Source of the DNA: Thermoanaerobaculia bacterium
GTDB taxonomy: Bacteria > Acidobacteriota > Thermoanaerobaculia > UBA5066
Direction: 5' to 3'
Length of the DNA stretch: 64,000 nt
NCBI GenBank assembly: GCA_038245905.1
Contig: JBBRRY010000002.1
Span: 1 to 64,000, forward strand
Within the stretch, counting starts at the first letter, position 1. Every line of letters begins with the position of its first letter. The translations under genes were made by a program, and so were the position numbers. Below, piece by piece: positions 33,657 through 54,253 of this stretch. The notes below the pieces were generated by a model that had not been told where the DNA came from, did no database searches, and saw nothing but the letters and a program-made list of their open reading frames with translations.

Positions 33657-33680
33657 GGCTTTCTCATCCAATCACGGCTC

Positions 33681-34340
33681 TCAAGGGCCGATTGCGGCGG
33701 TCGCCGACCCGGTAATGGTGTTCGTTCCACCTTGGTTCACGTTTTTCTGTGCTCCGGTCGATCCCCCGCCGGTCGTCAGGAGGAGCTGCTCCTCGACGAT
33801 CTTCGTCACGACGACACCCGCCGCGAGCCGCACGGTTCCGACCGAAATGAGGTTCACGATGTTGTCGTTGTCGACGGTGTCGGTGCCCGTCGCGTCATCC
33901 ACGTTGTTGCGAAGGTAGAGCGAGTATGTGACCCGATCCACGACGGAGACCCCTGCGGGTGGCGGGATCGGGACGTCGAGGTATGCCCGGCGATCCAACA
34001 GGAGGCAGCCGGCGTTCGAAATGGTGGAAAGGTCCAGCACCTGCGCGTCGTATCCCCCGCCGGGCACCTTCAGAGTCGGTGCCGAGCGGGCCGCAAGAAT
34101 GAGCGACAGAGTCTGGACGCCACAGGCCGCCGGGGCGAGGTTGATGACTTCGGTCAGGAGGGCCTCGCCGCGCCTGAGGCCCGCGTCCGCCGCGTAGAAG
34201 CCCGCCTTCGAGATGCGCGTGTTGCCCGACAGGCGGTCCTCCATGGACGTGAAGTACGCGATGCCGACTCCCACGATCGTCAGGACGAGGAGAACGAGGA
34301 TCACCGAGATGAGGGCGCTGCCGCGTGTTCTCATCGTCAT
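33681..34340 (-). CDS. pilX: Minor pilin PilX
   Basis: RG|SALISVILVLLVLTIVG with no Glu5, as expected for PilX; FYAADAGL; ATGA overlap with pilW. Confidence 0.85.
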   Translation of the reverse strand: MTMRTRGSALISVILVLLVLTIVGVGIAYFTSMEDRLSGNTRISKAGFYAADAGLRRGEALLTEVINLAPAACGVQTLSLILAARSAPTLKVPGGGYDAQVLDLSTISNAGCLLLDRRAYLDVPIPPPAGVSVVDRVTYSLYLRNNVDDATGTDTVDNDNIVNLISVGTVRLAAGVVVTKIVEEQLLLTTGGGSTGAQKNVNQGGTNTITGSATAAIGP

Positions 34341-35767
34341 CCCCTCGGAATCCGGTTGCGCAGCATCAGGGTCGCCGTCGCGCGGTAGTGGTCGAACTGA
34401 TCGTAAAGAGGCTTCAACCCGACCATCGTCACGGCGTGATCCTCCGAAGCCGGACGGAAATGCTGGTTAGGGGTCTTGGTCGGGTCCGCCACAACCAGGT
34501 CGTCATCCGCGCCCACGTTCGTGAGCTGACGGGCGCCGATCGGGAGGAGCGGGGATCGCCCCGTGACGGAGAACCTGAGGCCGATCACGTTTGCGATGTC
34601 GAGAGCGGGAGGACCCGCGGCGAAATTCGGCCCCGCCTGGAAGGGAACGCGCCCGGTGCATCCGGGCGCCGCCAGCGCCGCGCATCCGGGAGCCGCCGGA
34701 TTGATCGTCTGGGAGGCCGTATTCCAGACGAGCCCGCCCCCTCCCGCGGCCGCGTCCTGCGAGAACACGTAGGCGACCTGCAGATCCTCCACGTTCTCCA
34801 TCACGTTCGTGAAGGCCACACCCGGGTTGTCCGTGTTCGGGTCGAAGAGACCGAGCTTCTGCTGCAGCTTCGGAAGCCCGTCGACGCTGTCCGTGAGGAC
34901 GCGGAAGGAGATCACTTGAAGACCCGTGACGAGGAAAACCGGATCCGTGAGGCTCGCGACTGGGTTCGGGGCGGCGGGAAGCGCCGCCGTGGCCGTATCG
35001 GCCGTCACGTGAATGTTCTTGAAAGAACCCGCGGTCGTGTCGGTGCAGAGCCCGTCCACCAGATAACCCGCGGCCGGAATGCTCACGTAGGACCATCTCC
35101 CGTTCCTGTCGACGAGCATGAGGAGGGCGCTCGGCGTCGTTCCGTCAGATCCCGTCGCCGCCTGAAAGGCCAACCGATTCGCCGCATCGTCATTCAACGG
35201 GCCGCAGCCGACCCGGAAGTTGAACCACAAATCGACGTTCGCCCCGAGCGCCGGGAACCCCGTCGGCCCAGGCCAGGCCTGGTACCGGGCGGGATCGAAG
35301 GGAGCCACCATCGTGATCACGTCGGTTCCGACATCGCCGAACGCGGTCGAGGTATTGGCGGGCCTGAGCCCGCTCGCCGGCAGGAGAGAGTTCAAGGGCT
35401 CCGCACCCAACCCAATCCCGACGAGGTTGTTGTACGAGGCCTGCGTCGAGACCCCGTTGAGGTTGTAATACATGACCAGCGCGTTCGGGCTCGGGTGCGC
35501 GGAATCGACGTAGTTGGCGTCGGAAGCACCCGCGAAATAGTATGAGAGGTAGTCGGTCGCGCGGCGTGCCGCCTGGCGGGGAAGCATGAAGTACTGCTGC
35601 CGTTCCGCGAAGGCGCGCATCTGGAAAAGCATCGTCATCGCCACGACGAGGATGATGACGAGGAGCAGCAGCGAAACCATCGCCTCCAGAAGCGTGAAGC
35701 CCCGGGACAGGCCCCGGCGCCCGCGGCCATGGCTCTTGCTACTGTTACTGTGTGAACTGGGCCACAT
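34337..35767 (-). CDS. pilW: Minor pilin PilW
   Basis: RG|FTLLEAMVSLLLL, ENVEDLQVAY and C-terminal LRN; located between pilV and pilX. Confidence 0.87.
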   Translation of the reverse strand: MWPSSHSNSSKSHGRGRRGLSRGFTLLEAMVSLLLLVIILVVAMTMLFQMRAFAERQQYFMLPRQAARRATDYLSYYFAGASDANYVDSAHPSPNALVMYYNLNGVSTQASYNNLVGIGLGAEPLNSLLPASGLRPANTSTAFGDVGTDVITMVAPFDPARYQAWPGPTGFPALGANVDLWFNFRVGCGPLNDDAANRLAFQAATGSDGTTPSALLMLVDRNGRWSYVSIPAAGYLVDGLCTDTTAGSFKNIHVTADTATAALPAAPNPVASLTDPVFLVTGLQVISFRVLTDSVDGLPKLQQKLGLFDPNTDNPGVAFTNVMENVEDLQVAYVFSQDAAAGGGGLVWNTASQTINPAAPGCAALAAPGCTGRVPFQAGPNFAAGPPALDIANVIGLRFSVTGRSPLLPIGARQLTNVGADDDLVVADPTKTPNQHFRPASEDHAVTMVGLKPLYDQFDHYRATATLMLRNRIPRG

Positions 35768-36311
35768 AGTCCACTCTCTTGCCGCCGCCGTTCGTGCCGA
35801 TTCCCAGGTAACGCGAATCGCCGGCAGCGGCGGCGGCGGTCGTCGGCACTGCCGAGACCGTGATCACCCAGACGGCGACGCCGCTGTTCAGCGTCTGGTT
35901 CGCGTCTTGCGCGATCCTGTAGCTGATCTGGTACGGGCCGTTCGACGTTTCCATCACGTTCGCTCCCGCAGGACCCCAGAACGCCCACCCGGAATCGCCG
36001 CTGAGGTACGGAAGATTCCTGGTGACCGCACCGAGCGCGGGGATGTCGGTGGTGCCGATCACGGCGTCCGTCGCAAGACCGCGCGACGTCACGTAGTAGT
36101 ACCAGCGGATGTTCTCGACGACCTGCTGGCACTTGAAGAGCAGCTGCGTGCGCGCCGCCGAGCCCTTGTTGACGATGAGCGACACCGAGAACATCTGGAG
36201 AATGCCCACGAGGACGAGCGCCATGATGCTCATGGCGAGGAGCACCTCGACGAAGCTGCTGCCACGGCAGGAGCGGAAGCGGCGGTGCATGCGGAAGTTA
36301 CGCTCAGCCAT
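35745..36311 (-). CDS. pilV: Minor pilin PilV
   Basis: RG|SSFVEVLLAMSIMALVLVG (Glu5 present, Ser1); position in the fimT-pilV-pilW-pilX-pilY1 order. Confidence 0.8.
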   Translation of the reverse strand: MAERNFRMHRRFRSCRGSSFVEVLLAMSIMALVLVGILQMFSVSLIVNKGSAARTQLLFKCQQVVENIRWYYYVTSRGLATDAVIGTTDIPALGAVTRNLPYLSGDSGWAFWGPAGANVMETSNGPYQISYRIAQDANQTLNSGVAVWVITVSAVPTTAAAAAGDSRYLGIGTNGGGKRVDYVAQFTQ

Positions 36312-37122
36312 TTTGATCCACCCACGCAGGCGTAGAGTCCTTGATCTGTTTGACGACGCGAACGCTCCAGACGGGGTTGATGTTGAGAATGTACCGCGTC
36401 GGAGGCTGGAAGGTCTGGTTGACGACGTCCACGTGCGTGAAGACGAGCGTGGCCGGCCCCGCGATCTGCCGGCCCGTCGAAGCGGGGAGGCCGGCGTTCG
36501 GAGCGAAGGGCTTCGGGCCGACCGCCATCGCGCGCCCCTGGAGGTCGCACATGATGACGCGCGGAGCGGTCCAGAGCAGGGCGTTGTCCGACCAGAGCGT
36601 CGACTGGATCTCGGCCGTGTTCAAGACGGACAGGCAGAACTCCTGGTCCACACCGGAGATCCCCAGCGTTCCGGAGAGCCCCTTCACGATGATGTTGTAC
36701 TGGTCGATGAGGAGATCGGGGCATGCGGCCGTCGGCACCCTCTGAAAACATTCGAGGACTTCGTCTCCCGTGGACGACAAGACGCCGCCGGGAGCGCTCT
36801 GGTCCCCGACCAGGTAGATGGGGAGAGTACGGGAGGCTCCCGCGATGACGAGAGGACCCACCTGCACGAACACCGGGTTGCCGCGGCGGAACATCTCCGA
36901 GTACGCGCGCTGGAGGAGGACCTTGATGTCCGAGGAGGCGCTCTGGAGCTTCTGGCGTTTCCAGGCCCTCGAGATCTCGCCTCCGCCGATGACGGCGATG
37001 ATGCCGAGGATCATGATGACCACCAACAGCTCGACGAGGCTGAATCCCCTCCGGCCGCGCGGACGGGCCGAGCACGGGATCGGACTCAGGAGCAAAAGCG
37101 GCCGGTTCTTGCGGTTCTTCAT
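36304..37122 (-). CDS. fimT: Minor pilin FimT/FimU (GspH-like)
   Basis: RG|FSLVELLVVIMILGIIAVIG; first gene of the minor pilin operon; ATG at 37122. Confidence 0.82.
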   Translation of the reverse strand: MKNRKNRPLLLLSPIPCSARPRGRRGFSLVELLVVIMILGIIAVIGGGEISRAWKRQKLQSASSDIKVLLQRAYSEMFRRGNPVFVQVGPLVIAGASRTLPIYLVGDQSAPGGVLSSTGDEVLECFQRVPTAACPDLLIDQYNIIVKGLSGTLGISGVDQEFCLSVLNTAEIQSTLWSDNALLWTAPRVIMCDLQGRAMAVGPKPFAPNAGLPASTGRQIAGPATLVFTHVDVVNQTFQPPTRYILNINPVWSVRVVKQIKDSTPAWVDQNG

Positions 37123-37143
37123 CGAGAAAGTCCGTCCCTTAAA

Positions 37144-37160
37144 AGCGAGGTTCGTGCCCA
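37144..37160 (-). promoter_or_regulatory. Putative sigma54 -24/-12 promoter of the fimT-pilY1 operon
   Basis: Minus strand TGGGCACGAACCTCGCT = GG-N10-GC with a GGCACG core, about 23 nt upstream of the ATG. Confidence 0.65.
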
Positions 37161-37346
37161 ACCTCTTTCTTGGAAGCCAAATGATTCCTGGAAAGCATGT
37201 TACACCCGTCGAGAGGCAAGGTCATCACCGCCATCCCACGCACGAACAGACACTTTTCGTAACACTCAATGCCCGGCGGCGGACGATTCCCGCGCAAGGC
37301 GCGAACCGGCGCGCTCGGCTACGATAGAGAACATGGAGCTTCGCTG

Positions 37347-39872
37347 ATGGTCTTCGAGAAGCTGCGCGGCCTGCGTTCCGAGCCGGCCTTCGTCGCCCAG
37401 CTCCGCGAGCATAAGTGGACGAGCGACCAGCAGAAGAGAGAGCTCCTCGAGAAATTCCAGAGCGTCTCGAAGCCGGACGTCGAATGGGTCGCCTGGACGG
37501 CCCTCGACCAGACCCCGGAGATTCGGGCGGCGGGCCTCGCGATCCTGAAACGGCGCCACGATCGGGCCGGCCTCGAGGCGCTCGTCCCTCTCCTCAAGAC
37601 CCGCTCGGAGGCCGTCCGGCGCGCGGTCATGCGTTTTCTGAAAGACCTCGCGGGCCCGCAGCTCGGACCTTTCCTCCAGGAGGTGGCGTCCCGCGGCGAC
37701 GACTTTGCGCGGCTCGCGGCCCTCGATCTCGCGCGTGAGCTGCCCGCCGAGGCCGCCTTCGACATCGCGCGCCGAGTCCTCACCGCGGCGAACCCCGCGG
37801 TCCGCGCCCGCGCCCTGAAGGCCGTGAGCGAGATGAGCTTCGAGGGAAGCGCGGCGGTGGCCGCGAGCCTTGCCGTTCCCCTCCTCCAGGACGAAAGCGA
37901 GGAGATCCGGTACTCCGCCCTCGCCGTTCTCGAGAATAATCCGAACGAGAGCTACTTCCCGGACGTTCTCCAGATGGCCCGCACGGGCGGCGGGCGCGTC
38001 GCGGAGGCCTCGTTCGCGGCCATCAAGCGCCTGCTCGCGTCGGCCAAGCAGGATCACACCCCGGAGATCGTGCCGCTCCTGGCCGACGGGAACGCGCTCG
38101 TGCGCCAGGGCGCCGTGAATCTCCTCATGCCCTTCGCGCCGGAGCTCCTCGCGCGCCGGCTTCTCGAGCATTTCCGCGGCTCGTTCGTCTGGGTTCGCGA
38201 CCGCGCGGTCGAGACGGCCCGGGACGGTCTTCCGGGGTTCGTGAACGCGCTCCTCACGCTCACGAACGATCCCGATCCGGCGTTCGCGAAGGCGGCGTCG
38301 GAAATGACCCTTGCGCTTTCCGACGTCAAGGCGCTGCCCGTGTGGATCAAGCTCGTGGACGACCGCGACCTCTGGGTACGGACGCGGGCCGTCGAGGCGC
38401 TCGGCCGCTTCGGCAAGGGAAACGACGACGTCCTCGCGCGCCTCCTCGCAGCGCTGAAAGACCCGGAGCTCGTCATCGCGGCCGCATCGGCCGTCGGGGA
38501 TCTCGGCGACAAGCGCGCCGCGCAGCCGCTGCTCGACGCGTTCAAGGCCGCCGCGACGCGTCCCGACGTCCAGATGGAGATCCTCGACGCGATGGGACGG
38601 CTCGCGCTTGCCGAGCCCGGAGTGCAGTCGCAGATCGCGACGATCTGTTCGCGGGTCTCGCAGATGGCACAGCTGGACGCCGCGGTTCGCGAACGCGCCC
38701 GCCGGCTCGTCGGCAGGCTCTCGGGCGACGACGCCCGCGACGCGCTCCCGAATATCGAGCCGGAGATCGAGGCCGTCAACCTCTCGGGCAACATCGGCGC
38801 GCGGCTCGTCGAGTTCCTCGCCGACACGGTCAAGCACGGCGCCTCCGACCTCCACCTCGCGACCGGATTCGTGCCCCATCGGCGAGTGCAGGGCGTTCTC
38901 GAGCCCGTGGATGCGCCTCCTATGACCCGCGCGCGTGCGGCCCAGCTCATCCGCGAAGTGCTCGACGAGACGGAGTGGAAGCGTCTCGAACGCGAGCGGC
39001 AGATCGACGTCTGCCTGAAGCTGCCCGGACTCGGGCGCTTCCGCGCGAACTTCTATTCCCAGCGCGGCGGCTTCGACGCGTGCTTCCGCGTCGTCCCGAA
39101 GTCGATTCCGACGATCGAGGAGATCGGGCTCCCCTCCTCCCTCTCCGACGTCCTGAAGTTCACGCAGGGACTCGTCCTCGTGACCGGCCCCTCAGGATGC
39201 GGGAAGTCCACGACGCTCGCGGCGCTCATCGACCGAATCAACGAAACGCGCCCGTGCCACATCATCACCGTCGAGGACCCTGTCGAGTTCGTCCACCAGA
39301 ACAAAGAAGCGCTCGTGAACCAGAGGCAGGTGCCCCACCACACGGCCTCGTTCGCGCGAGCGCTCAAGGCCGCCCTCCGCGAAGACCCGGACGTGATCCT
39401 GGTGGGCGAGATGCGCGACCTCGAGACGATCTCGCTCGCGATCACGGCCTCGGAGACGGGCCACCTCGTGCTCGGCACCCTGCACACGACCAATGCTCCG
39501 GCGACGATCGACCGCGTCGTCAGCTCCTTCCCCCCCGGTCAACAGGGCCAGATCCGCGTCATGCTCGCGGACTCCCTGAAGGCCGTCGTCTCCCAGGCTC
39601 TCCTGCCGCGCCGCGGGTTCGCGGGCCGCGTGGCCGCCTTCGAGATCCTGCGGACGACCTCCGCGGTGTCCGCGCTCATCCGCGAAGGAAAGACGCATCA
39701 GCTTCCGTCCCAGCTCCAGACCGGCCAGAGCGCCGGCATGATCACGATGGACCAGTCGCTCATGAAGCTCTGCGAAGAAGGCAAGGTGGATCCCGAGAGG
39801 GCCCTCGAGAAGGCGCTCAAGAAGGAACCCTTCGAGAAGCTACTCGCCGACGAGAGGCAGGCGCTCGAATGA
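37347..39872 (+). CDS. HEAT-repeat - PilT/PilU retraction ATPase fusion
   Basis: About 470 aa of HEAT/PBS-like repeats, then ASDLHL, RFRAN, GPSGCGKSTT, EDPVE, LREDPDVILVGEMRD, GHLVLGTLHT, AVSALIRE. Confidence 0.92.
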   Translation: MVFEKLRGLRSEPAFVAQLREHKWTSDQQKRELLEKFQSVSKPDVEWVAWTALDQTPEIRAAGLAILKRRHDRAGLEALVPLLKTRSEAVRRAVMRFLKDLAGPQLGPFLQEVASRGDDFARLAALDLARELPAEAAFDIARRVLTAANPAVRARALKAVSEMSFEGSAAVAASLAVPLLQDESEEIRYSALAVLENNPNESYFPDVLQMARTGGGRVAEASFAAIKRLLASAKQDHTPEIVPLLADGNALVRQGAVNLLMPFAPELLARRLLEHFRGSFVWVRDRAVETARDGLPGFVNALLTLTNDPDPAFAKAASEMTLALSDVKALPVWIKLVDDRDLWVRTRAVEALGRFGKGNDDVLARLLAALKDPELVIAAASAVGDLGDKRAAQPLLDAFKAAATRPDVQMEILDAMGRLALAEPGVQSQIATICSRVSQMAQLDAAVRERARRLVGRLSGDDARDALPNIEPEIEAVNLSGNIGARLVEFLADTVKHGASDLHLATGFVPHRRVQGVLEPVDAPPMTRARAAQLIREVLDETEWKRLERERQIDVCLKLPGLGRFRANFYSQRGGFDACFRVVPKSIPTIEEIGLPSSLSDVLKFTQGLVLVTGPSGCGKSTTLAALIDRINETRPCHIITVEDPVEFVHQNKEALVNQRQVPHHTASFARALKAALREDPDVILVGEMRDLETISLAITASETGHLVLGTLHTTNAPATIDRVVSSFPPGQQGQIRVMLADSLKAVVSQALLPRRGFAGRVAAFEILRTTSAVSALIREGKTHQLPSQLQTGQSAGMITMDQSLMKLCEEGKVDPERALEKALKKEPFEKLLADERQALE

Positions 39873-41020
39873 GCGAGGCGCCTCCCGTCCGTGCCGCCGA
39901 GACGGGCGCGAACCGGATCGACACCCTCCTCCGGATCGTCGTCGACAAGAAGGCCTCGGACCTACACCTCGCCGTGGGCTCGCCGCCGATGGTCCGCGTG
40001 GACGGCGATCTCATACGGCTGAAGTGGCGCACGCTGACCGAGGAGGAGTACGAGAGCCTCGTCGCACCGATCGCCCCGGAGAAGCCCTTCAAGGACTGGA
40101 AGGAGACGGGCGACGCCGACTTCGGATACTCGATGGGAAAGATCGCCCGCTTCCGTGTGAACCTGTTCCGGCAGGAGCACGGGTCCGGCGCCGTACTCCG
40201 CATGATCCCGCCGAAGGTCCTCACGATCGAGGAGCTCGGACTCCCGCCCATCGTCGCGAACGTCGCGCGTGTTTCGCGCGGCCTCGTGCTCGTGACCGGC
40301 CCCACGGGATCCGGCAAGTCCACGACGCTCGCGGCCCTCCTCGACTGGATCAACCGCACCCGCGCATCGCACATCGTGACGATCGAGGACCCCGTCGAGT
40401 TCATCCACGCGCCCCTGAAGTCGCTCATCTCGCACCGCGAGCTCGGTTTCGACACGCCGACGTTCGCGGGCGCGCTCAAGGCCGCGCTTCGCGAGGACCC
40501 CGACGTCGTCCTCGTCGGCGAGCTTCGCGACCTCGAGACGATGTCGATGGCGTTGCAGGCCGCCGAGACCGGGCTCCTCGTCTTCGGCACGCTGCACACG
40601 AATTCCGCCGCGAAGGCGGTGGACCGCCTCATCGACAGCTTCCCCGCCGAGGAGCAGGAGCAGGTTCGAACCGTCCTGGCCGAAGTGCTGAAGTCGGTCG
40701 TCGCCCAGGTGCTGCTGAAGAGGAAGGGCGGCGGACGCGTGCCCGCGTTCGAGGTCCTCCGCGGCTCCTCCGCGCTCTCGAACAGCATCCGCGAAGGCAA
40801 GACGAACATGATCTCGACCCTCATCCAGACGGGCCGCAGCGGTGGGATGATCGGAATGGACCAGTACCTCGCGGATCTCGTCGCGGCAGCCACCGTCGAA
40901 CCTGAGGAGGCGCTCGAAAAGGCCCTGGACAAGGAACAGTTCAAGGGACTCGTCGAGAAGCGGAAAACCGCGGCAAACCGCCCGCCGGCGCCCGCGGCGG
41001 GCGCCGCCCTCGAACCCTGA
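39869..41020 (+). CDS. pilT: Type IV pilus retraction ATPase PilT
   Basis: ATGA overlap; ASDLHL, RFRVNLF, GPTGSGKSTT, EDPVE, LREDPDVVLVGELRD, GTLHT. Confidence 0.93.
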   Translation: MSEAPPVRAAETGANRIDTLLRIVVDKKASDLHLAVGSPPMVRVDGDLIRLKWRTLTEEEYESLVAPIAPEKPFKDWKETGDADFGYSMGKIARFRVNLFRQEHGSGAVLRMIPPKVLTIEELGLPPIVANVARVSRGLVLVTGPTGSGKSTTLAALLDWINRTRASHIVTIEDPVEFIHAPLKSLISHRELGFDTPTFAGALKAALREDPDVVLVGELRDLETMSMALQAAETGLLVFGTLHTNSAAKAVDRLIDSFPAEEQEQVRTVLAEVLKSVVAQVLLKRKGGGRVPAFEVLRGSSALSNSIREGKTNMISTLIQTGRSGGMIGMDQYLADLVAAATVEPEEALEKALDKEQFKGLVEKRKTAANRPPAPAAGAALEP

Positions 41021-41048: not shown

Positions 41049-42821
41049 TCAGCCGGCCGCGGGCAGCGTGAGAACGAATCGCGCGCCGGAAAGCGCGCGT
41101 GAGCTCTCGACGGTCACGGCGCCGCCGTGGAGAAGCGCGATCTTGGCGACGAGAGCGAGGCCGAGCCCCGTCCCGGTGTCTTTCGTGGAATAGAAAGGGA
41201 CGAAGAGCTTCCCGGCGGCCTCTTCGGGCACTCCCGGGCCGTCGTCCTCGACCGCGATCCGCGCGAAGCCGGCCGCCGCGCCCTCGCCGCAGAGGACGAC
41301 GCGGCCCGCGCGGCCGCCCGCGGCCGCGGCCTCGCATGCGTTCTTCACCAGATTCACGAGCGCGCGCCGCACGAGGGCCGGGTCGGCGATCGCGGGCGCG
41401 AACGTCCCCGCTGCTTCCACGCGGACACCGGGCGTCAAAACGCGCTGCTCCTCGGCGATCTCGAGCGCGAGCGCGCGGAGGTCGCACAGGCCGGCCTCGA
41501 GCCGCTCGGGCCTCGCGAAAAAGAGGAAGTCGCCTGTCACGCGCGCCACGTGCTCGGCCTCGGCCTGGATCGCGTCGAGCTGGCGCCCGCGTGCCGCGGG
41601 ATCGCTCGTCTTCGCGGCGAGGCGCGCCCATCCGAGAATCGTGCCCGTCGCGTTGCGAAACTCGTGCGCAATGCCCGCTGACATCTCGCCGAGAGCCGCA
41701 AGCTCGCGGCGGGACGAGAGCTCCCGCTCGAGACGCCGCGTGTTCGTGCGGTCCTCGAGGAACAGCAGGATGCCCATGATGGATTTTCCAGAGTCGAGGA
41801 TCGGGACGGCCGTCAGCTCGAGCAGGCGCGCGCCCGCTCCCGTTCCGATCGCCAGCTCCAGGGAAAGAGTCGGCGAGCCCTTCCGCGCGGCCTCCGCCGC
41901 CGCGCGGAGAGCGGGCACCGCGTCGATCGCCGCCTCGGCTCCCTCGGCAAGAGCTCCCTCGCCGAGGCCGAGGAACTCGCGGGCGGGAGCATTCGCCTGC
42001 GTCAGGCGGCCCGCGGCGTCCACCACCACGAGCCCGCCCGGGTGCGAGCGCACGAGCGTCTCGGCCGTCACCGCGAGGTCGTCCGCGCGCCGCTTTTCGG
42101 AACGGCGGAGCCCTTCCAGCTCGACCGTGCGTTTCTTCAGCTCCTCGACCGTGCGTTGGAACGTGGCGATCGCCGTCTCGGCTTCGTCGCTGCCGGCTCG
42201 CGCCGCCGGCACGAGGCCTCCGACTCCGCGTGCCGTCTCCGTGAGGGCGTCGATCGGTTCCGAAAGGCGCCGGAGGAACGGCACCACGAGAAGAACGAGG
42301 ACGCACGCGGCCGCGGGCACCGCGATCGAGAGGATGCGGGCATTGCGGCGGGCCTCCGCGATCGACGCTCCGTCCCAGACGACCCTCAGTATCCGCGTCT
42401 CTCCCGAAAGGGCGACGGTGATCGACGGAGCTCCGCGTTCGCCCCCCGCCACGACGGGCTCCGGAGAGGGCCGCTCGCCGGCCGGCAGCACGGCGGGCGC
42501 GAGCCCCGCGTCCGGGAGGAACTGGGCCTCGACGATGCGCTCTCCGCGCGCGTCGTAGAGCGCCGCCCCCCGCGCGTTCAGCTCGCGGAGAATCCGCGTA
42601 AGGGGCGCATCCGAGGCAAGCGCGAGCGCGGCGTCCGGCGTTCGGGCTAGGCGGTCCGCGACCGCGCGCGTTTCCACGGTCAGGCGCCGGAGATTCTCGC
42701 CGGCGCCCCACTCCGCGGTGTTCCGGAGCACGACGACGGCCGCGCCGGCGAGAAAGAGCAGCGTCGCGAGCCCGCCCACGATCACGATGCGCACCTCGCG
42801 CTCGAACCCGCGATCCGTCAT
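41049..42821 (-). CDS. Sensor histidine kinase with HAMP/PAS (PilS-like)
   Basis: Two TMs, PAS (GLVVVDAAGRLTQAN), H box AGIAHEFRN, NLVKNA, DDGPG, FVPFYSTK, GTGLGL; ATGA overlap with pilD. Confidence 0.92.
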   Translation of the reverse strand: MTDRGFEREVRIVIVGGLATLLFLAGAAVVVLRNTAEWGAGENLRRLTVETRAVADRLARTPDAALALASDAPLTRILRELNARGAALYDARGERIVEAQFLPDAGLAPAVLPAGERPSPEPVVAGGERGAPSITVALSGETRILRVVWDGASIAEARRNARILSIAVPAAACVLVLLVVPFLRRLSEPIDALTETARGVGGLVPAARAGSDEAETAIATFQRTVEELKKRTVELEGLRRSEKRRADDLAVTAETLVRSHPGGLVVVDAAGRLTQANAPAREFLGLGEGALAEGAEAAIDAVPALRAAAEAARKGSPTLSLELAIGTGAGARLLELTAVPILDSGKSIMGILLFLEDRTNTRRLERELSSRRELAALGEMSAGIAHEFRNATGTILGWARLAAKTSDPAARGRQLDAIQAEAEHVARVTGDFLFFARPERLEAGLCDLRALALEIAEEQRVLTPGVRVEAAGTFAPAIADPALVRRALVNLVKNACEAAAAGGRAGRVVLCGEGAAAGFARIAVEDDGPGVPEEAAGKLFVPFYSTKDTGTGLGLALVAKIALLHGGAVTVESSRALSGARFVLTLPAAG

Positions 42822-43996
42822 GGCAGGAGCCTCGGAACCCAGGGCAGCCCCCCGGCGATCGCGTCCCAGGCCGGGCGACCGGCCACGAACGCCACGAGCT
42901 CACCGCAGGCGAGAAAGACACCGAACGGCACGTCGACGCGCGCGAGAAGCACGAGGAGCCCGCCCGGCGTCGCCTCGGCACGCGCCGCGAGAACCCGGAA
43001 GAAGTCGGCGCCGTCGTCGAGCGCGAGGCGCCCGTGCGCGGCCCGCTCGCCGCGCCGGGCCCGCGTCCTCGCGAGCCGGACGAACGCGAGGAGCCGGCCG
43101 GCCGTCGGGACGTCCGCCGCGAGCCGATTTCCTTCGGCTGCGGCCCCCGGAATCTCGCGGAAGCGTGCCGAGGCCGAAAGGACGCGGCCGTCCTCCCCGA
43201 TGAGAAGCCCGGAACGTGCCGCCACCGCGCGAGCGGCCGAGGACGACGCGCGCGCGCGCCGCGCTTCGAGGGACCAGCGGAGCGCGCGCAGGAGCGTCGC
43301 GCCGCCCGCCACGACCGTGCCCGCGAGAGAGGCGAAAAAGAGCGTGAGAAAGACGCCCGCGGGTCCCGTGAACGCTCCCGCCATCGCGAGCATCTTCACG
43401 TCGCCTGCGCCCATGCCTTCCTGCCCACGCAGCCGTGCGTAGGCGCGGCGAACCCCTTCGAGAAAGAGCGCACCCAGGAGCGCCCCGAGGACCGCCTCGG
43501 CGAGGTGGCTCCCGGCCACCGCCCCCGCGAGATCGCGCCCCGAAGCCGGCGCGATGCGGTCGCGGAGCGCCGCGAGGACGAGGCCAAGCGCGAGAGTCCC
43601 GAGAGTCACCTCGTCGGGCAGCGTGCGCGCCTCGAGGTCGGTGGCCGCGAGGATCACCGACGCCGCTGCGAGAAAGGACGCCGAGGCCGCGACGAGCGTG
43701 GGCCCGTAGAGGAAGCCTGCCGCGAGAAAAAGCACCGCCACGAGCAGCTCGACGAGCGGGTAGCGGAGCGGGATGCGTGCGTCGCAGCGGCGGCAACGGC
43801 CGCGGAGAAGGAGCCAGGACACGACGGGCACGTTGTCGAAGAACGCGACGGGCTCCCCGCAGGACGGGCAATGCGAACCCGGGTAGACGACCGAAAGCCC
43901 GCGCGGCAGCCGGTGGATGCATACGTTCGCGAAGGAGCCCACGATCGCGCCCGTCGCGAAGAAGAGGCCCAGGAGGACGCCGTCGACGGCGCTCAC
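42818..43996 (-). CDS. pilD: Prepilin peptidase/N-methyltransferase with about 120-aa insertion
   Basis: GSFANVCIHRLP, SHCPSC...RGRCRRC, RYPLVE, catalytic D in TDLEARTLPD and GMGAGDVK, PFGVFL. Confidence 0.93.
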   Translation of the reverse strand: MSAVDGVLLGLFFATGAIVGSFANVCIHRLPRGLSVVYPGSHCPSCGEPVAFFDNVPVVSWLLLRGRCRRCDARIPLRYPLVELLVAVLFLAAGFLYGPTLVAASASFLAAASVILAATDLEARTLPDEVTLGTLALGLVLAALRDRIAPASGRDLAGAVAGSHLAEAVLGALLGALFLEGVRRAYARLRGQEGMGAGDVKMLAMAGAFTGPAGVFLTLFFASLAGTVVAGGATLLRALRWSLEARRARASSSAARAVAARSGLLIGEDGRVLSASARFREIPGAAAEGNRLAADVPTAGRLLAFVRLARTRARRGERAAHGRLALDDGADFFRVLAARAEATPGGLLVLLARVDVPFGVFLACGELVAFVAGRPAWDAIAGGLPWVPRLLP

Positions 43997-46290
43997 GCGC
44001 GACTCTTTCCCGCGAGAACGAGGCCGAGGAGCACGACGAGTGACGCGATCGAAATCGCCGCGCCCACGCGGAAAGAGATCGGGCGGTAGACGAGCTCGAG
44101 GCGGTGGGCGCCCGCCGGCAGGAGCACCGCCGAAAGGGCGAGGTCCGCCCGGCGGAGCGCGACGCCCTGCCCGTCCACGGACGCCTCCCAGCCGCGATCG
44201 TACGCGCGCGTGAGGACGAGGAAGCCCGCCTCGGAAGCCTCGACGTCGACCCTCAGGAGCTCGGGCGCATCCGACACGACGCGCGCGACCGAGAAGCTCC
44301 TCCCCGAGCGCGAAAGTGGAAGGGGTCCGGCGGGAGGAGCGACGAGGACGACAGCCTCCGGGTCGAAATCCGGCGTGGCAAGGGCATGAAAGGCGTCGTC
44401 GTCATCCGCCTCCCGCGCCGACCGCGCGAAAAAAACGCGCCCCTGCGGCCGCGAGAGGGCGTAGAGGAAGACGCCGCCGCCCTGCCGCTCGAGCCGGGCT
44501 CCGGGAATTGCCGCCGGAAACGGCGACACGATATGCCGCACGTCCGCTAGCGAGAGAATCGTGCCCGCGTTTCCCCCCGAGAGCGCGGCGCCGAGGAGGC
44601 GCCTGCGCCAGGGGTTCCCGATGGGCGACGGCGACGCCGCAGAGGAAAGGCCGAGGGGCAGGTTCGTGTAGCCCGAGAGTGCGGCCCGCGCCCGCGCCGC
44701 GGCCTCGCCTCCCCACTCACCGCCCGTCTCGCGGCCGAGCGCGAGGAGTGCCGCCCCGTCCGAGGCGAAGGGAAAAACTCGACCCGGCGCTCCGGTCAGT
44801 CCCGCGACGAGAGGCGGCGAACCCTCGAGCCTGGCGGGCGCGAAGAGGCCGGCCGTCGCGCCGGCGAGAGGAAGCGCCACGAGCACGATGAGAAGGGCGC
44901 CCGAACGCGCGGGACCCGGCCGCCCGGTCATGCGAACGGACGCGAGCAGAATCCCGCCGGCAGCCGCAGCGATAAGCGTCGCCCGGGCCGTCACACCCGT
45001 TGCTCGCCCGGCCGCGAGCCCCGCGCACAGAAGTGCGACCGTGATCGCCGCGAAGACGAAGAGGGGTGCGAGACGGGCCGCGGCCGGCGCCGACACGCGG
45101 GCGCCGTCTTCCGGTTCGAGACTCTTTGGCCACGTGAATATCCGTCCGTATCGCCAGCCGTCGAGGCCGGCGCCCGCGAGACCCGCGAGAGCGAACAGCG
45201 TGAGGACGAACCAGCGCGCGGGGAACCTTATGCCGCGCGCGATTCCCAGATCCCAAAGAACCGGGAGTAGCCCTCCCCGCGCCCCAAGAGCGAGCAAGAG
45301 GCCGACGAGCGCGAGAATCGCAAGCCCCGCGAGCAGCCGCGGCCGCGCCGCCAACCCAGCGCCCGCCCCCGCCGCGAGGACGAGCACGAGCGGAGACAGC
45401 GCGAGCGTCGCGAGGTAGCCGCCCCGCCCAGGCTCCGGACGGAGCGTCAGGGCGTCGGGCGGCGGCAGGACGAGATCGAGAAAATCCGACGATCCGACGG
45501 GACGTGCGAGCGCCTCGGCGCGGGTTACGCCCAGCAGCCGTCCGGAGGACGCGGCGTATTCGAAGAAGGGAAGCGCCGTGGCCGCCGCCAGGGTCGCGCC
45601 GAGAAGAAGCCCTCCAAGGAGCCGCACGAACGGCCTGCCCGAATCGACTGTTCCGGCCGGCTCCTCGCGCCGCGTGAAGAATGCAAGAAGGACCGCACCC
45701 GCCGCGCCCGCGACCGCGACGGACGGCTCCCCGCCGAGGAACGAGAGAGCGAAGGCAACCGCGAGCCCCGCAGGCGAGCCGCCCGCTGCCGCGTAACGCG
45801 CCGCGGCGAAGAGCCAGGGGAGGAACGCCGCCGTTTCGAAGTTGTTGTACACGAGCGCGAGCGACAGGAACGCACCGCCCCCCACGTACGCCGACGCGCC
45901 GAGGAGCGCCCCCGCGCGCGAGGCGCCGAGGCCGAACAACCAGACCGCCATTCCGGACGAGGCGATCGCAAGATGGATGGCGATGCTCAGGAGCGGCCCC
46001 CAGATGCCAGGGAGCAGGAACGGAAAGTCCACCGGGTTGAGTACGCCGGACTGGAGCTGAGCGATCCACGGCTCTCCACACCCCGACAGGGGATTCCAGA
46101 GAGGCATGCCGGAGGCCCAGCGCACGGCTGTGTAGGCCTTCATCGGCCAGAAGAAATCGGCGAGGTCTCCGCGCGCGGGCAGCCCGCCCGAAAACACGCT
46201 CGGCACCAGGAATACCGCCGCGAACGCGAGCCCCATGGCGCCGCCCAGGAGCGCCGTCCGTCCCGTCGTCCCGCGGCCTTGCACCGTCAC
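43993..46290 (-). CDS. YfhO-family membrane glycosyltransferase (GT-C)
   Basis: GDL..FF.P, PLWNPLSGCGEP......QSGVLNP, RFPARW, C-terminal GFLVL...YD.GWEASVDG....AV.LPAGAHRLELVYRP plus last TM. Start 46290 (GTG) or 46236 (ATG). Confidence 0.85.
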   Translation of the reverse strand: MTVQGRGTTGRTALLGGAMGLAFAAVFLVPSVFSGGLPARGDLADFFWPMKAYTAVRWASGMPLWNPLSGCGEPWIAQLQSGVLNPVDFPFLLPGIWGPLLSIAIHLAIASSGMAVWLFGLGASRAGALLGASAYVGGGAFLSLALVYNNFETAAFLPWLFAAARYAAAGGSPAGLAVAFALSFLGGEPSVAVAGAAGAVLLAFFTRREEPAGTVDSGRPFVRLLGGLLLGATLAAATALPFFEYAASSGRLLGVTRAEALARPVGSSDFLDLVLPPPDALTLRPEPGRGGYLATLALSPLVLVLAAGAGAGLAARPRLLAGLAILALVGLLLALGARGGLLPVLWDLGIARGIRFPARWFVLTLFALAGLAGAGLDGWRYGRIFTWPKSLEPEDGARVSAPAAARLAPLFVFAAITVALLCAGLAAGRATGVTARATLIAAAAGGILLASVRMTGRPGPARSGALLIVLVALPLAGATAGLFAPARLEGSPPLVAGLTGAPGRVFPFASDGAALLALGRETGGEWGGEAAARARAALSGYTNLPLGLSSAASPSPIGNPWRRRLLGAALSGGNAGTILSLADVRHIVSPFPAAIPGARLERQGGGVFLYALSRPQGRVFFARSAREADDDDAFHALATPDFDPEAVVLVAPPAGPLPLSRSGRSFSVARVVSDAPELLRVDVEASEAGFLVLTRAYDRGWEASVDGQGVALRRADLALSAVLLPAGAHRLELVYRPISFRVGAAISIASLVVLLGLVLAGKSRA

Positions 46291-46304
46291 GATTCTAGGC
46301 CCGG

Positions 46305-46334
46305 AAAAGAAAAGAGCCCCCAAGAGGGGGCTCT
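46305..46334 (-). terminator. Rho-independent terminator after the major pilin gene
   Basis: Minus strand AGAGCCCCC-TCTT-GGGGGCTCT followed by TTTCTTTT, about 27 nt after the pilin stop. Confidence 0.88.
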
Positions 46335-46360
46335 CGAATCGGGACTCAGCGGGAGGACGA

Positions 46361-46867
46361 TTACCGCTGCGCGCCCGCGGGGTATTGGACGAACTGGCCG
46401 TTGAAGAAGACGATGTCGTCGTTGAAGTTCGTCGTCTCACCGCCGACGTAGGTACCCGGTGCGCCGTCTTTGCCGTTGGACGCCATGGCATAGGCCTGCG
46501 GGTTGGCCCCGCTGTTCCCGTACAGGAAGTACGAGCTCCAACCGTCCACGACGGGCAGGAGGCGGATGTAGGTCGGCGCGACCTGTTTGTTGAATCCGCT
46601 GTTGGGGGCGCCGAACGACGTCGTCGGGAGACCCATACCCGAAGGAAGGGTCACCGCGGCCGCGGCCGGATAGTGGTTGAAATCGACGGCATACGCCTCG
46701 GCGGCCGTGCCCGCGGAGCGCAAGTCGGCCATCGTCCTCTTCTGCTTGGCGCGCTGGATGGCGTTGAGCAGGTTCGGAATGGCGATCGCGACGATGATGC
46801 CGATGATCGCGACGACGATCAAGAGCTCGATCAGCGTGAAGCCTTTGTTTTGGTTCCTCTTCTTCAT
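46361..46867 (-). CDS. pilA: Major type IV pilin (GspG-like head), copy 1
   Basis: AGGAGG RBS; MKKRNQNKG|FTLIELLIVVAIIGIIVAIAIP; DGW and S.G.DG GspG-like motifs; own promoter and terminator. Confidence 0.85.
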   Translation of the reverse strand: MKKRNQNKGFTLIELLIVVAIIGIIVAIAIPNLLNAIQRAKQKRTMADLRSAGTAAEAYAVDFNHYPAAAAVTLPSGMGLPTTSFGAPNSGFNKQVAPTYIRLLPVVDGWSSYFLYGNSGANPQAYAMASNGKDGAPGTYVGGETTNFNDDIVFFNGQFVQYPAGAQR

Positions 46868-50705: not shown

Positions 50706-52018
50706 CTTCTCCCGCTGCCGGGGACCCGCTCGGACGGCAGCAGGATGACCGACTCCCCGAGCCCGCCCGCCGCGCTGCCGCCGCGATACGCTTCTTCCCC
50801 GTGCACCTGGCGGTCGAGGCCTTCCAGCTCGGCGCGAAGCTCGACCCGGAGCGGCGTGACGGCCTTCACGAGGAGGAGAACGGCGGCCGTGGCCGCCGCG
50901 GTGTATAGAAACACGACCGCGACCGCGCCGATCTGGACGCCGAGAAGCGCCGCGCCCCCCGCGAGGAGCCCGTTGCCGCCGTCCGGGTTCGCCGCCTTCG
51001 AGGCGAAGACGCCAGTCAGGATCGAACCGGTGATCCCGCCGATTCCGTGGCACGCGAAGACGTCGAGCGTGTCGTCGAGCGACGTACGCGCCCGAAGGCG
51101 CAGGGCCGTGAAGCTCGCGAGGGCCGTGAGCGCTCCGATCGCGACCGCGGAGAGCGGCGACACGAAGCCGGCCCCCGGCGTGATGCCGACGAGCCCGACG
51201 ACCGCGCCCGTCGCCGCGCCGACCGCCGTCGCATGGCCGCCAAAGTGGTTTTCGAGGAGGAGCCAGGTGAGGAGGGCTGCCGCCGCCCCGGCATTCGTCG
51301 TGACGAACGCGAGCGACGCGATGCCGTTCGCGGCGAGCGCCGATCCCGCGTTGAAGCCGAACCAGCCGAACCACAGCAGACCCGAGCCGAGGAGCACATA
51401 TGGGACGTTGTGCGGGATCAGCGCGATGCGCTTGTGGTCCTGCCGCGCGCCGAGCAACCGCGCGGCAACGAGAGCAGCCGTCCCGGCCGTCACGTGCACG
51501 ACCGTGCCGCCGGCGAAATCGAGCGCGCCCCATCCCCGCAGGAATCCGCCGGTGCCCCAGACCCAATGCGCAACCGGGGCGTAGACGACGAGACTCCAAA
51601 GTCCGATGAAGAGGACGTAAGCGCGGAAGCTCATCCTCTCGACGATCGCGCCCGAGATGAGCGCGGGCGTGATCGTCGCGAACATCCCCTGAAAGACGAA
51701 GAACGCGAGGTGCGGAACCGTGGGCGCATAGTCGGACTGGGGCGCCGCTCCGACCCCGGAAAGGCCGAGCCACTTCAACCCGCCGAGGAACGCCGAACCC
51801 GGAGCAAACGCGAGCGAATAGCCCGCCGCCATCCAGACGAGGGCGCCCGTACCCATCGCAACGTACGTCATCATCAGCGTGTTGAGCGTGTTCTTCCGCC
51901 GCACGAGGCCGCTGTAAAAGAAGGCCAGCCCTGGGTTCATGACGAAAACGAGCGCGGCCGAGCCGAGGAGCCACGCGGTGTCGCCGGCGCTGATCGCGGG
52001 AAGAGCCGCGCCATTCAC
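50702..52018 (-). CDS. amtB: Ammonium transporter
   Basis: GDTAW, PGLAFFYSG, FQGMFA, DFAGGTVVH, LLWFGWFGFNAGS, DDTLDVFACHG (both pore His); GTGA overlap with glnK. Confidence 0.96.
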   Translation of the reverse strand: MNGAALPAISAGDTAWLLGSAALVFVMNPGLAFFYSGLVRRKNTLNTLMMTYVAMGTGALVWMAAGYSLAFAPGSAFLGGLKWLGLSGVGAAPQSDYAPTVPHLAFFVFQGMFATITPALISGAIVERMSFRAYVLFIGLWSLVVYAPVAHWVWGTGGFLRGWGALDFAGGTVVHVTAGTAALVAARLLGARQDHKRIALIPHNVPYVLLGSGLLWFGWFGFNAGSALAANGIASLAFVTTNAGAAAALLTWLLLENHFGGHATAVGAATGAVVGLVGITPGAGFVSPLSAVAIGALTALASFTALRLRARTSLDDTLDVFACHGIGGITGSILTGVFASKAANPDGGNGLLAGGAALLGVQIGAVAVVFLYTAAATAAVLLLVKAVTPLRVELRAELEGLDRQVHGEEAYRGGSAAGGLGESVILLPSERVPGSGRS

Positions 52019-52416
52019 GCCGGGTCTCCCTTCGCGACACGGATCGCGCGCGCCTGGACCGCTCCGGCCGAAACGGGCGTCAGCGCCTGGACGTCCTGCT
52101 CGCCCGTCCGGATCCGGATCACGCGATCGAGCGGCTGGACAAAAATCTTTCCGTCGCCGACCTCGCCGGTGCGGGCGCCCGCGATGATGGCCGCGATCGT
52201 CGCCTCGACGAACGGCTCGGAGACAGCGATGTCGATCCGCACTTTCTCGACGAACTCGAAGACGAGCGTCGTGCCGCGGTACTGCTCGACCGTTTCATGC
52301 TCGCCGCCGTGCCCCTGCACGCGCGACAGGGAAATCCCCGTGACGCCGGCGCGGAACAGCTCGGCCTTTACGTCGGCGAGCTTCTCGGGGCGGATGATCG
52401 TGGTGATGAGTTTCAT
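52015..52416 (-). CDS. glnK: P-II nitrogen regulatory protein
   Basis: ATG at 52416: MKLITTIIRPEKL...YRG...ARTGEVGDGKIFV...RIRTGE; upstream of amtB. Confidence 0.95.
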   Translation of the reverse strand: MKLITTIIRPEKLADVKAELFRAGVTGISLSRVQGHGGEHETVEQYRGTTLVFEFVEKVRIDIAVSEPFVEATIAAIIAGARTGEVGDGKIFVQPLDRVIRIRTGEQDVQALTPVSAGAVQARAIRVAKGDPA

Positions 52417-52500
52417 GTGCAATCTCCCGCTTTCGCGCGTCGACGGCGCGTTGTATCGTCTTTCGGGGTCGAAGAGAAGCCTCGGCTCCTGGAGGTCTTC

Positions 52501-53082
52501 GTGGTTCGGACGGTCCGGGAAGAACCGGGGGGCGGGACCGGCACGAGCGGGACCTACCCAGCCGGGGACGAGCAGGACGTCGTCCTGAAGGACGGCGCGG
52601 CGCTGCACATGCGCCCGATCCGGGACGCCGACGAGGCGGGCCTCCTCGCGCTCTACGACCGCCTCTCTCCCGAGAGCCTCTATTTCCGCTTTTTCGCCGT
52701 GCCCGACAAGGACGCGGGGAAAGTCGCGTACCTCACGCATGTCGACTACGAAACGCGCTATGCCGTCGTCGCCGAGACGGCGGGAGCTATCGTGGGCGTC
52801 GCGCGATGGGAGCGCCTCGGCGTCCCGCCGGGCCACGCGGAAGTCGCCTTCACGGTAGCCGACGACTTTCAGGGGCGCGGCCTGGGCAGTATTCTTTTCC
52901 GGCGCCTCGCCGTGCTGGCCCGCGCTCGGGGAATCGCGGTATTCGAGGCCGAGGTCTTGAAGAACAACGAGCGCATGCTGCGCGTCTTCGAGCGCACCGG
53001 CCTCCCGACAGCGACGCGCGATCAGGGAAGCATTCTGACGATCCTCATGACGCTGGATCCGGCGGGCTCCCCGCCAGCCTGA
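52501..53082 (+). CDS. GNAT N-acetyltransferase (like the GNAT domain of Pat lysine acetyltransferases)
   Basis: LKDG...MRPI, LSPESLYFRFF, VDY, AEVAFTVADDFQGRGLG, N.RML.VF. The GTG start is uncertain. Confidence 0.87.
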   Translation: MVRTVREEPGGGTGTSGTYPAGDEQDVVLKDGAALHMRPIRDADEAGLLALYDRLSPESLYFRFFAVPDKDAGKVAYLTHVDYETRYAVVAETAGAIVGVARWERLGVPPGHAEVAFTVADDFQGRGLGSILFRRLAVLARARGIAVFEAEVLKNNERMLRVFERTGLPTATRDQGSILTILMTLDPAGSPPA

Positions 53083-53116
53083 TCCGGCGCCCGTATCCCT
53101 ATACACTTGCCGCGCG

Positions 53117-54253
53117 GTGGCCGCGGAACCACTTCCCAAGAGCATCGGCCGGTACGAGATTCTCCGCCTGCTCGGCCGGGGCGGAATGGGAGAGGTCTAC
53201 CTCGCGTCGGACTCCGCGCTGGGCCGCCAGGTCGCCATCAAGATCCTCCCGGCGGCTCTCCAGAGCGACGCGAAGATGCGCGGGCGTTTCATGAACGAAG
53301 CGCGCGCCGTCGCGACGCTGATCCATCCGAACGTGATCACGATCCACGACCTCGCGACGACGGACGCGCGCGACATGGGGGTCCCTCCGGGAGCCCTCTA
53401 TCTCGTCCTCGAATACCTCGAGGGAGAGGGCCTGGACGAGATCATGGACAGGCGGCGGCTCTCGATCGCCGAGTGCCTCGACATCGCGATCCAGGCGCTC
53501 GAGGGCCTGAAGGTGGCGCATCAGAGCCGCATCCTGCACCGGGACATCACGCCGTCGAACATCATGCTGGCGCCGAGCGGCCACGTGAAGGTGCTCGACT
53601 TCGGACTCAGCAAGATTCTCTCCGAGGGCGCCCGCGACACGGCGCGGTCTCACCTCCATACGGGCGAAGGGATGATCGTCGGCACACTCGACTACCTGTC
53701 GCCGGAGCAGGCCCTCGGCAACCCCCTCGACGAGCGGTCCGACCTCTTCTCGTTCGGCATCGTGTTCTACCAGATGCTGGCCGGCGTGCATCCGTTCTCG
53801 GGTGCGAGCGTGACGCAGATGGTGGCCAAGATGATGACCAAGGAGGCGGACCCCTGGCCCGAGCCCGAGCTCGTGCCCGAAAGCCTGAAACAGATCGTTG
53901 CGCGCGCCCTCCGGAAAGAGCCCGCCGAACGTTACGGAAGCGCGGGCCAGATGATTCTCGACCTCGTGGTCGCCCGGCGCGAGCTGCACGCGAGACCCGC
54001 CCGGGGGGCCGTCACGCGAGAAGTCCCCGCAGCAAGACCCGTCGCGGGCTCCGTCGCCGACTCAACGGCCCCGCTTCGGCGGCCGCGCTCCTCGGCCGCG
54101 GCCATGACGAGCGAAATGCCAGCGCCCCGAAAGGGGCCTCTTCTTCTCCTCCTCGGCGCGAGCCTCTCGTTGATCGCCGTGACCGCCCTCTTCGCGACCC
54201 GCGGCTGCGGACGGCTCCGGACGCTCGCCCCCCCGCCGGCGTCGGCCCGCTGA
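53117..54253 (+). CDS. Hanks-type Ser/Thr protein kinase with C-terminal TM
   Basis: LGRGGMGEVY, VAIK, HRDITPSN, DFGL, GTLDYLSPEQ, SDLFSFG; TM near the C terminus. Confidence 0.94.
   Translation: MAAEPLPKSIGRYEILRLLGRGGMGEVYLASDSALGRQVAIKILPAALQSDAKMRGRFMNEARAVATLIHPNVITIHDLATTDARDMGVPPGALYLVLEYLEGEGLDEIMDRRRLSIAECLDIAIQALEGLKVAHQSRILHRDITPSNIMLAPSGHVKVLDFGLSKILSEGARDTARSHLHTGEGMIVGTLDYLSPEQALGNPLDERSDLFSFGIVFYQMLAGVHPFSGASVTQMVAKMMTKEADPWPEPELVPESLKQIVARALRKEPAERYGSAGQMILDLVVARRELHARPARGAVTREVPAARPVAGSVADSTAPLRRPRSSAAAMTSEMPAPRKGPLLLLLGASLSLIAVTALFATRGCGRLRTLAPPPASAR

Follow-up and report, generated by a model that had tools for sequence, protein, structure and literature searches.

A predicted PAS-like domain inserted into the last loop of the prepilin peptidase PilD in one family of Thermoanaerobaculia

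As a rule, prepilin peptidases are regarded as housekeeping enzymes that serve type IV pili and type II secretion constitutively, and regulation is looked for at transcription or at the ATPases. The class of GxGD proteases includes presenilin. Among other intramembrane proteases, the site-2 protease SpoIVFB carries a CBS domain. According to the accessible text of PMC4471445, prepilins are cleaved at the membrane's cytoplasmic side, and FlaK, the archaeal preflagellin peptidase, is a GxGD intramembrane aspartyl protease with a soluble domain of four antiparallel beta-strands that protrudes into the cytoplasm. Here we describe a PilD homologue with a large insert in its last loop, for which a PAS-like fold is predicted.

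The window is a stretch of 64,000 nucleotides from a Thermoanaerobaculia bacterium (phylum Acidobacteriota; assembly GCA_038245905.1, contig JBBRRY010000002.1, positions 1 to 64,000). The pilD gene lies on its minus strand at 42818..43996 and encodes a type IV prepilin peptidase/N-methyltransferase homologue of 392 aa. Residues 15-93 match Pfam A24_N_bact (PF06750; E 3e-34, 117.3 bits, cut-off 23) and residues 108-230 match Peptidase_A24 (PF01478; E 6e-18, 65.6 bits, cut-off 26.5). A zinc-type CxxC...CxxC motif (C43, C46, C68 and C71; 43784..43870, minus strand) is located in the N-terminal cytoplasmic domain, within the PF06750 match. The first catalytic aspartate is Asp120 (TDLE...LPD; 43637..43639, minus strand), and Asp199 belongs to the GxGD motif (GAGDVK; 43400..43402, minus strand). 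Its catalytic role is assigned from what is known of the family, as set out in the accessible text of PMC4471445. All four cysteines and both aspartates are invariant in the 28 aligned sequences, so that the preliminary description was right in calling them intact. The same is true of G196 and G198 in the GxGD motif and of P357, F358 and G359, the PFG motif of the last transmembrane helix (residues 356-381; 42854..42931, minus strand), which the full-length AF2 model places at residues 358-381. By all the sequence features tested, PilD thus reads as a member of the A24A prepilin peptidases. The assembly (genome G000, 96.4% complete) contains a single match to Peptidase_A24, namely pilD itself; PilD is its sole A24 peptidase.

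Between the penultimate helix, which ends in GGATLL, and the last helix, which starts with VPFG, the protein has a loop of 119 residues (residues 237-355; 42932-43288 of the window, minus strand). We compared it with the PilDs of eight genomes from the same order but from two other families (f2 and f3). Each of the eight has a length of 256-264 aa and a loop of about 8 residues at this place; in the alignment they show a single 111-column gap opposite residues 245-355 of PilD, which amounts to a net insertion of 111 aa. The earlier statement that PilD has 392 aa and about 119 extra residues before the PFG motif is therefore borne out. In families f2 and f3, 15 genomes gave a match, and in none of them did it extend through the insert without meeting a stop codon. 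The insert can be divided into an Arg-rich linker or N-cap with two predicted helices, which is its most variable part (residues 237-262; 43211..43288, minus strand), and a PAS-like core (residues 263-355; 42932..43210, minus strand) with two strands, a short helix, a conserved IPGA..G loop, a long helix and three further strands as predicted elements. Its length is nearly constant, at 111-123 residues across nine genera.

PilD also carries a second, smaller insertion of 15 residues (residues 144-158; 43523-43567, minus strand). It is found in the 20 aligned PilDs of genus g1 and is absent from the eight insert-less relatives. The loop that holds it connects two transmembrane helices and lies across the membrane from the PAS-like insert.

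The pilD gene overlaps both of its same-strand neighbors by 4 bases. Upstream lies a gene for a YfhO-like membrane protein of 832 aa (43993..46491, minus strand), whose C-terminal part matches PF09586; the stop codon of this gene overlaps the start codon of pilD (GTGA). A homologue of this gene precedes pilD on the same strand in 21 of 21 loci checked, with and without the insert. The protein is polytopic and might be a glycosyltransferase acting on pilins. Downstream, the pilD stop overlaps the start (ATGA) of a gene for a sensor histidine kinase of 590 aa (41049..42821, minus strand) with PAS_4, HisKA and HATPase_c domains. The PAS of this kinase spans residues 255-363 (41733..42059, minus strand) and is matched by the Pfam models PAS and PAS_4 (PF08448), the latter over residues 259-363 with E 4e-7 (genome match C2:41733-42047). 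Both the overlap and the PAS domain of the kinase had been reported correctly from the window. The epithet "PilS-like" given to the kinase at the same time is not backed by these data. No NCBIfam model reaches its cut-off on this protein, the best being AtoS with 186 versus 646 bits, and no response regulator gene follows the kinase gene, which converges on a T2SSE ATPase gene.

There are in fact two T2SSE-type ATPase genes on the plus strand on which the kinase gene converges. One is an 867-aa ORF (37269-39872, plus strand) with HEAT repeats at about residues 247-399 and a T2SSE ATPase domain at residues 515-781; an N-terminal extension of HEAT repeats is unusual for a pilus ATPase. The other follows this ORF and ends at 41020. 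Minor-pilin-like genes (N_methyl, PilX_N) are found at 33681-37161. With these and the two ATPase genes close by, pilD is therefore set in a pilus gene neighborhood. Beside the minor-pilin-like genes we noticed an open frame of 1864 aa (28077-33671, minus strand) that has no Pfam match at E <= 0.001 and could either encode a large protein associated with pili or be an artefact of high G+C content. Another open frame, of 376 aa (52015-53145, minus strand), matches a P-II nitrogen-regulator domain at residues 244-349 only, and its listed start is probably too far upstream.

The insert proved to be common in the family of the window (f1). Apart from the window's own genome, 33 of 37 other sampled family genomes carry it; they span nine genera, and the identities fall to 42-45% at the lowest. 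The four genomes of the family that gave no match are all assemblies of 360-1020 contigs. The absence from close relatives that would have spoken against the insert was thus not what an ortholog search returned. Outside the family the picture is different. Our class sample comprised 401 Thermoanaerobaculia genomes, 363 of them from other families, and only seven of these 363 gave matches, of merely 21-24.5 bits (E 1e-4 to 9e-4), which we took as Ala/Arg-rich noise. In a profile search of 401 genomes across the phylum, with 11 candidates scored per genome, the insert was detected in four f1 genomes and in none of the 397 others. The tallies for f2 and f3, the class and the phylum include two unpublished genomes (G025 and G030), on which no claim hangs. 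A phmmer search of 1.84 billion representative proteins with the insert gave 11 matches, ten of them PilD-type proteins or fragments of such, each with this insert. The eleventh (P0012) is an unrelated repetitive protein. In a set of 5.8 billion proteins we found 79 matches to the insert; all 79 carry PF01478 and 75 also carry PF06750, while a precomputed PAS family assignment was found on none of them. Among the sampled genomes, the insert is restricted to one family of Thermoanaerobaculia, with no credible match outside.

Within the family, the PAS-like core (residues 263-355) is conserved about as well as the protease itself. Its mean pairwise identity is 0.63, compared with 0.65 for the A24 core; the linker (237-262) is at 0.44 and all parts other than the linker are at 0.63-0.66. 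By the Nei-Gojobori method, dN/dS over 78 pairs of the closer genus subgroup was 0.16 in the insert core, 0.25 in the A24 core and 0.19 in the N-domain. Purifying selection on the insert is as strong as on the catalytic core. Given this conservation, the dN/dS values and the single A24 match in the assembly, the insert is therefore a selected part of the sole prepilin peptidase. We also searched the genome for a second DNA copy of the insert and found none except for a 47-base low-complexity match. An origin from a repeat or a mobile element was rejected, since there is no other genomic copy and selection acts at the protein level.

The preliminary description had proposed that the insert is a PAS-like domain. 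Sequence models do not place it there. Pfam has no match at all on the insert of the window and no credible match on 35 family inserts, PAS_8 appearing in one of the 35 with E 0.096. Searched one by one, the best Pfam matches of these 35 inserts are scattered over unrelated families (E 0.009-1), and a profile of the insert finds a single match among PDB sequences, to an unrelated domain with E = 1. Structure prediction gives a clearer answer. When the insert alone was modelled with AF2 (121 aa, from a 35-row alignment of nine genera), the mean pLDDT was 91.1 and the pTM 0.86, and the five models ranged from 87 to 91. By its DSSP string, the model consists of helices at 2-12 and 16-26, strands at 27-30 and 35-39, a short helix at 41-44, a loop, a long helix at 61-78 and strands at 84-90, 98-107 and 110-118. 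These predicted elements follow the PAS order, preceded by an N-terminal cap. In a canonical PAS domain, two short helices stand between strand 2 and the long helix. In the model of the insert these are largely reduced to one short helix and a loop, and the loop contains an invariant Pro, Gly and Gly (P47, G48 and G53 of the model).

Using the predicted model as query, Foldseek listed 42 matches in the PDB, of which 41 are PAS, PYP, LOV, heme-PAS, phytochrome or Cache-type by description. PYP and LOV domains are PAS folds. The best match was 3luq_D (E 0.009, probability 0.99, TM 0.50); PYP entries had TM values of 0.54-0.62, and the top matches as a whole had probabilities of 0.95-0.99 and TM values of 0.50-0.62. 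No PDB match had E <= 0.001. Among viral predicted structures, E went no lower than 0.05, and a few of the rows were histidine kinases or PAS proteins. In the ESM Atlas, the feature neighbors of the insert are PAS-named, TraJ (PF00989) and PAS_4 clusters at 0.92-0.93; they share 136-152 of 256 features, which is below the usual level within a family and can serve as a lead only.

The outcome of the AF2 predictions depends on the alignment. In a full-length run on PilD with 28 rows, of which 20 had the insert, all with identities of 64% or more, residues 278-354 stayed below pLDDT 50. A single model, built on 35 aligned rows, therefore carries the fold assignment; the prediction is informative, yet alignment-dependent. 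The PAS-like reading is nevertheless supported by three lines of unequal weight, namely the order of elements in the AF2 model, the Foldseek matches and the neighbors found by the protein language model, and we consider it very likely that the insert adopts a PAS-like fold. It is predicted to be PAS-like yet does not belong, at the level of sequence, to any Pfam PAS family. The proposal thus stands as far as the predicted fold goes and fails where a Pfam PAS model would be expected to match. The Foldseek E-values are weak. The helix order of the full-length model and the positive charge of the Arg-rich insert suggest that it is located on the cytoplasmic side.

In the explanation that we favor, and hold to be somewhat more likely than not, PilD is a functional type IV prepilin peptidase, as its sequence suggests, that has acquired a PAS-like domain as a regulatory or interaction module. 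The insert would then consist of a folded, PAS-like domain (about 95 residues) and a helical, Arg-rich linker (about 25). The PilD of this family would have gained this domain in the last cytoplasmic loop, on the same face of the membrane as both catalytic aspartates and the zinc-finger methylase domain. As a built-in module it could modulate either the access of prepilins or the activity of PilD, triggered perhaps by a cytoplasmic ligand or partner, or it could tether PilD to a partner, and the conserved face of its beta-sheet may pack against the cytoplasmic parts of PilD itself. A mechanism of this regulatory or interaction type seems the most likely one, although we infer it entirely. More specifically, PilD could be a ligand-gated GxGD intramembrane protease, in which the PAS-like domain senses a cytoplasmic cue (a metabolite, the redox state or a protein partner) and either admits prepilins to the active site or keeps them out. 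We regard this gating as a tentative and rather doubtful refinement. If it were true, the biogenesis of pili or pseudopili would be controlled post-translationally, at maturation, by the sole prepilin peptidase. Our analysis identified no cofactor residue, ligand or partner of the insert.

It is also possible that the insert is a degenerate PAS scaffold that senses nothing, and either docks or dimerizes for the pilus machinery (the platform protein, the ATPases or a PilM-like protein) or stabilizes the last helix near the active site. The last three predicted strands are conserved on both faces (GRLxLDDGxDFFRVLAxRA..GLLVLLARxDVP), the invariant columns do not include a His or Cys typical of cofactor-binding PAS domains, and in the model a loop stands in place of the helices by which the ligand pocket is usually enclosed. 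The gene surroundings are pilus-related, with two T2SSE ATPases and minor pilins. However, the invariant Pro, Gly and Gly of the loop (P47, G48 and G53) would fit a binding loop as well, and no partner of the insert was identified in this analysis. A scaffold of this kind seems to us a possibility, albeit one with the balance against it.

The second question is where the domain came from, and here the PAS of the neighboring kinase has to be considered. The preliminary description had aligned the two by eye. A BLASTP comparison of PilD and the kinase finds nothing (best E 2.2). A Smith-Waterman alignment of the insert and the kinase PAS scores 62 versus 39 +/- 6.9 for shuffles and recovers the alignment made by eye; 12 of 2000 residue shuffles reach this score. 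When profiles were compared by hhalign (93 insert sequences, of which 62 were kept, against 22 kinase PAS sequences), the score was 28.8 (P 2.3e-4, probability 45%) over 76 columns with 28-29% identity, again in the register of the alignment by eye. This score was reached by none of 200 column shuffles (mean 11.4, maximum 20.4) and by none of 200 shuffles of six-column blocks (mean 15.7, maximum 24.5). As controls, the periplasmic region of the kinase scored 12.1, its DHp region 9.1 and the reversed PAS 8.1. A second hhalign comparison, of the 35-row insert alignment with the kinase PAS alignment, gave 25.8 (P 0.001, probability 21%). The score lies above all shuffles and controls, so the PAS-type signal in the insert appears to be real but remote.

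Whether it points to this particular kinase is less clear. We compared the insert profile with single PAS sequences of the same genome, using 21 of 26 genomic PAS_4 matches (two short partial ones and three below the cut-off were dropped). The neighbor's PAS came fourth of the 21 with a score of 16.8, behind, for instance, C13:55161-55454 with 22.4, and most alignments were in the same register of the N-terminal hairpin. Built into a profile of 25 rows, the PAS at C13:55161-55454 scored 22.5 against the insert, compared with 25.8-28.8 for the kinase PAS. The likeness to the kinase PAS, as judged from these sequence comparisons, seems to be real but weak, and not clearly specific to the neighbor. 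Of the original observation, the resemblance itself has thus survived the shuffle statistics (12 in 2000 by Smith-Waterman, none in 400 by hhalign), while a special tie to the adjacent gene could not be established.

One way to account for this likeness would be a duplication, in which the PAS-coding segment of the kinase gene was copied into the pilD loop. Such an origin would be compatible with any function of the insert. Here and in the insert-less relatives alike, such a segment is found about 1 kb downstream of the place of insertion, and the best profile match covers 76 columns in a single register with an identity of 28-29%; the neighbor's profile scores 28.8 or 25.8 versus 22.5 for the one other PAS profile tested. 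However, this margin amounts to only about 3-6 score units against a single other PAS profile, and the fourth place of the neighbor among 21 single sequences does not single it out. We would not bet on a local duplication, though it deserves a place among the candidate origins.

It had further been suggested that the insert forms a heterodimer with the PAS of the kinase, whose translation is coupled to that of PilD, and that such PAS-PAS docking couples prepilin processing to signalling. The ATGA overlap of the two genes fits this idea, as does the weak profile similarity above shuffles. A kinase homologue also lies on the same strand, within the flank of pilD that was analyzed, in all 37 other family loci. 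However, the kinase also adjoins an insert-less pilD in three relatives (L021, L024 and L025) and partly in two more (L026 and L027), though not in L022, L023 and L028; the adjacency therefore predates the insert. Moreover, the PAS of the kinase is kept in 33 of the 36 other family loci assessed and lost in three, L055 (genus g15) and L057 and L058 (genus g11), where clean in-frame deletions have removed about 100-126 residues. The PilDs of these three loci keep a conserved insert of 113-121 residues. An obligatory pair of insert and kinase PAS is therefore unlikely, and serving as an obligatory docking site is probably not the role of the insert; a facultative contact may still occur. Since the similarity, too, is not clearly specific to the neighbor, the docking proposal is left without support, and we now regard it as improbable. 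In the kinases without a PAS, the losses map to about 638-643 of L055 and 554-649 of L057, and the coiled coil is joined straight to the phospho-acceptor helix.

Finally, the Ala/Arg-rich composition of the insert, in a gene of 72-78% G+C, could suggest a low-complexity or repeat-derived filler that is tolerated in a permissive loop and forms no domain, but the dN/dS of 0.16 with conservation equal to the catalytic core, the lack of a second DNA copy in the genome, the confident AF2 fold and a length held at 111-123 residues over nine genera bring this reading already close to refuted.

If the favored explanation of a functional PilD with an acquired PAS-like module is correct, a sensor-type domain conserved in the sole PilD of a whole family would be a sign that control is exercised during prepilin maturation. 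The insert would also give a natural soluble handle on the question of how cytoplasmic domains gate intramembrane proteolysis by GxGD proteases. It may further serve as an example of a domain that is invisible to Pfam and is revealed by a modest custom alignment together with structure prediction. In the open full-text literature (main texts), as judged by titles and the beginnings of abstracts and by the accessible text of PMC4471445 and PMC4307647, we did not find a PAS-containing PilD described, in agreement with what the preliminary description had assumed.

Compared with known systems, the protein resembles PilD, XcpA and GspO (MEROPS A24A) in having both Pfam domains, the aspartates, the GxGD motif, the four cysteines and the terminal PFG helix, and in the location of its gene in a pilus gene neighborhood. 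It differs from all eight insert-less PilD relatives by the net insertion of 111 aa, predicted to be folded, in the last cytoplasmic loop and by the second insertion of 15 aa. A phmmer search with the whole PilD found no A24 structure among PDB sequences. Among GxGD proteases, FlaK offers the closest precedent for such a soluble domain in the cytoplasm; its domain is described as four-stranded, whereas a PAS-type alpha/beta fold is predicted for the PilD insert. In its predicted order of elements and fold, the insert is similar to PAS sensors such as 3luq, photoactive yellow protein, PpsR, DosP and NifL, and its N-terminal "GLLV-x-DGR-V..." hairpin pattern can be aligned with the genome's own PAS domains in a common register. 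Unlike sensor PAS domains, it has no Pfam PAS match, and the helices after strand 2 are replaced by a conserved loop. Sensor PAS domains stand upstream of a kinase, cyclase or DNA-binding output, whereas this one would sit inside a polytopic membrane protease. SpoIVFB differs in both protease class and domain, but it offers an analogy for the fusion of a soluble domain of a small-molecule-sensing type to an intramembrane protease.
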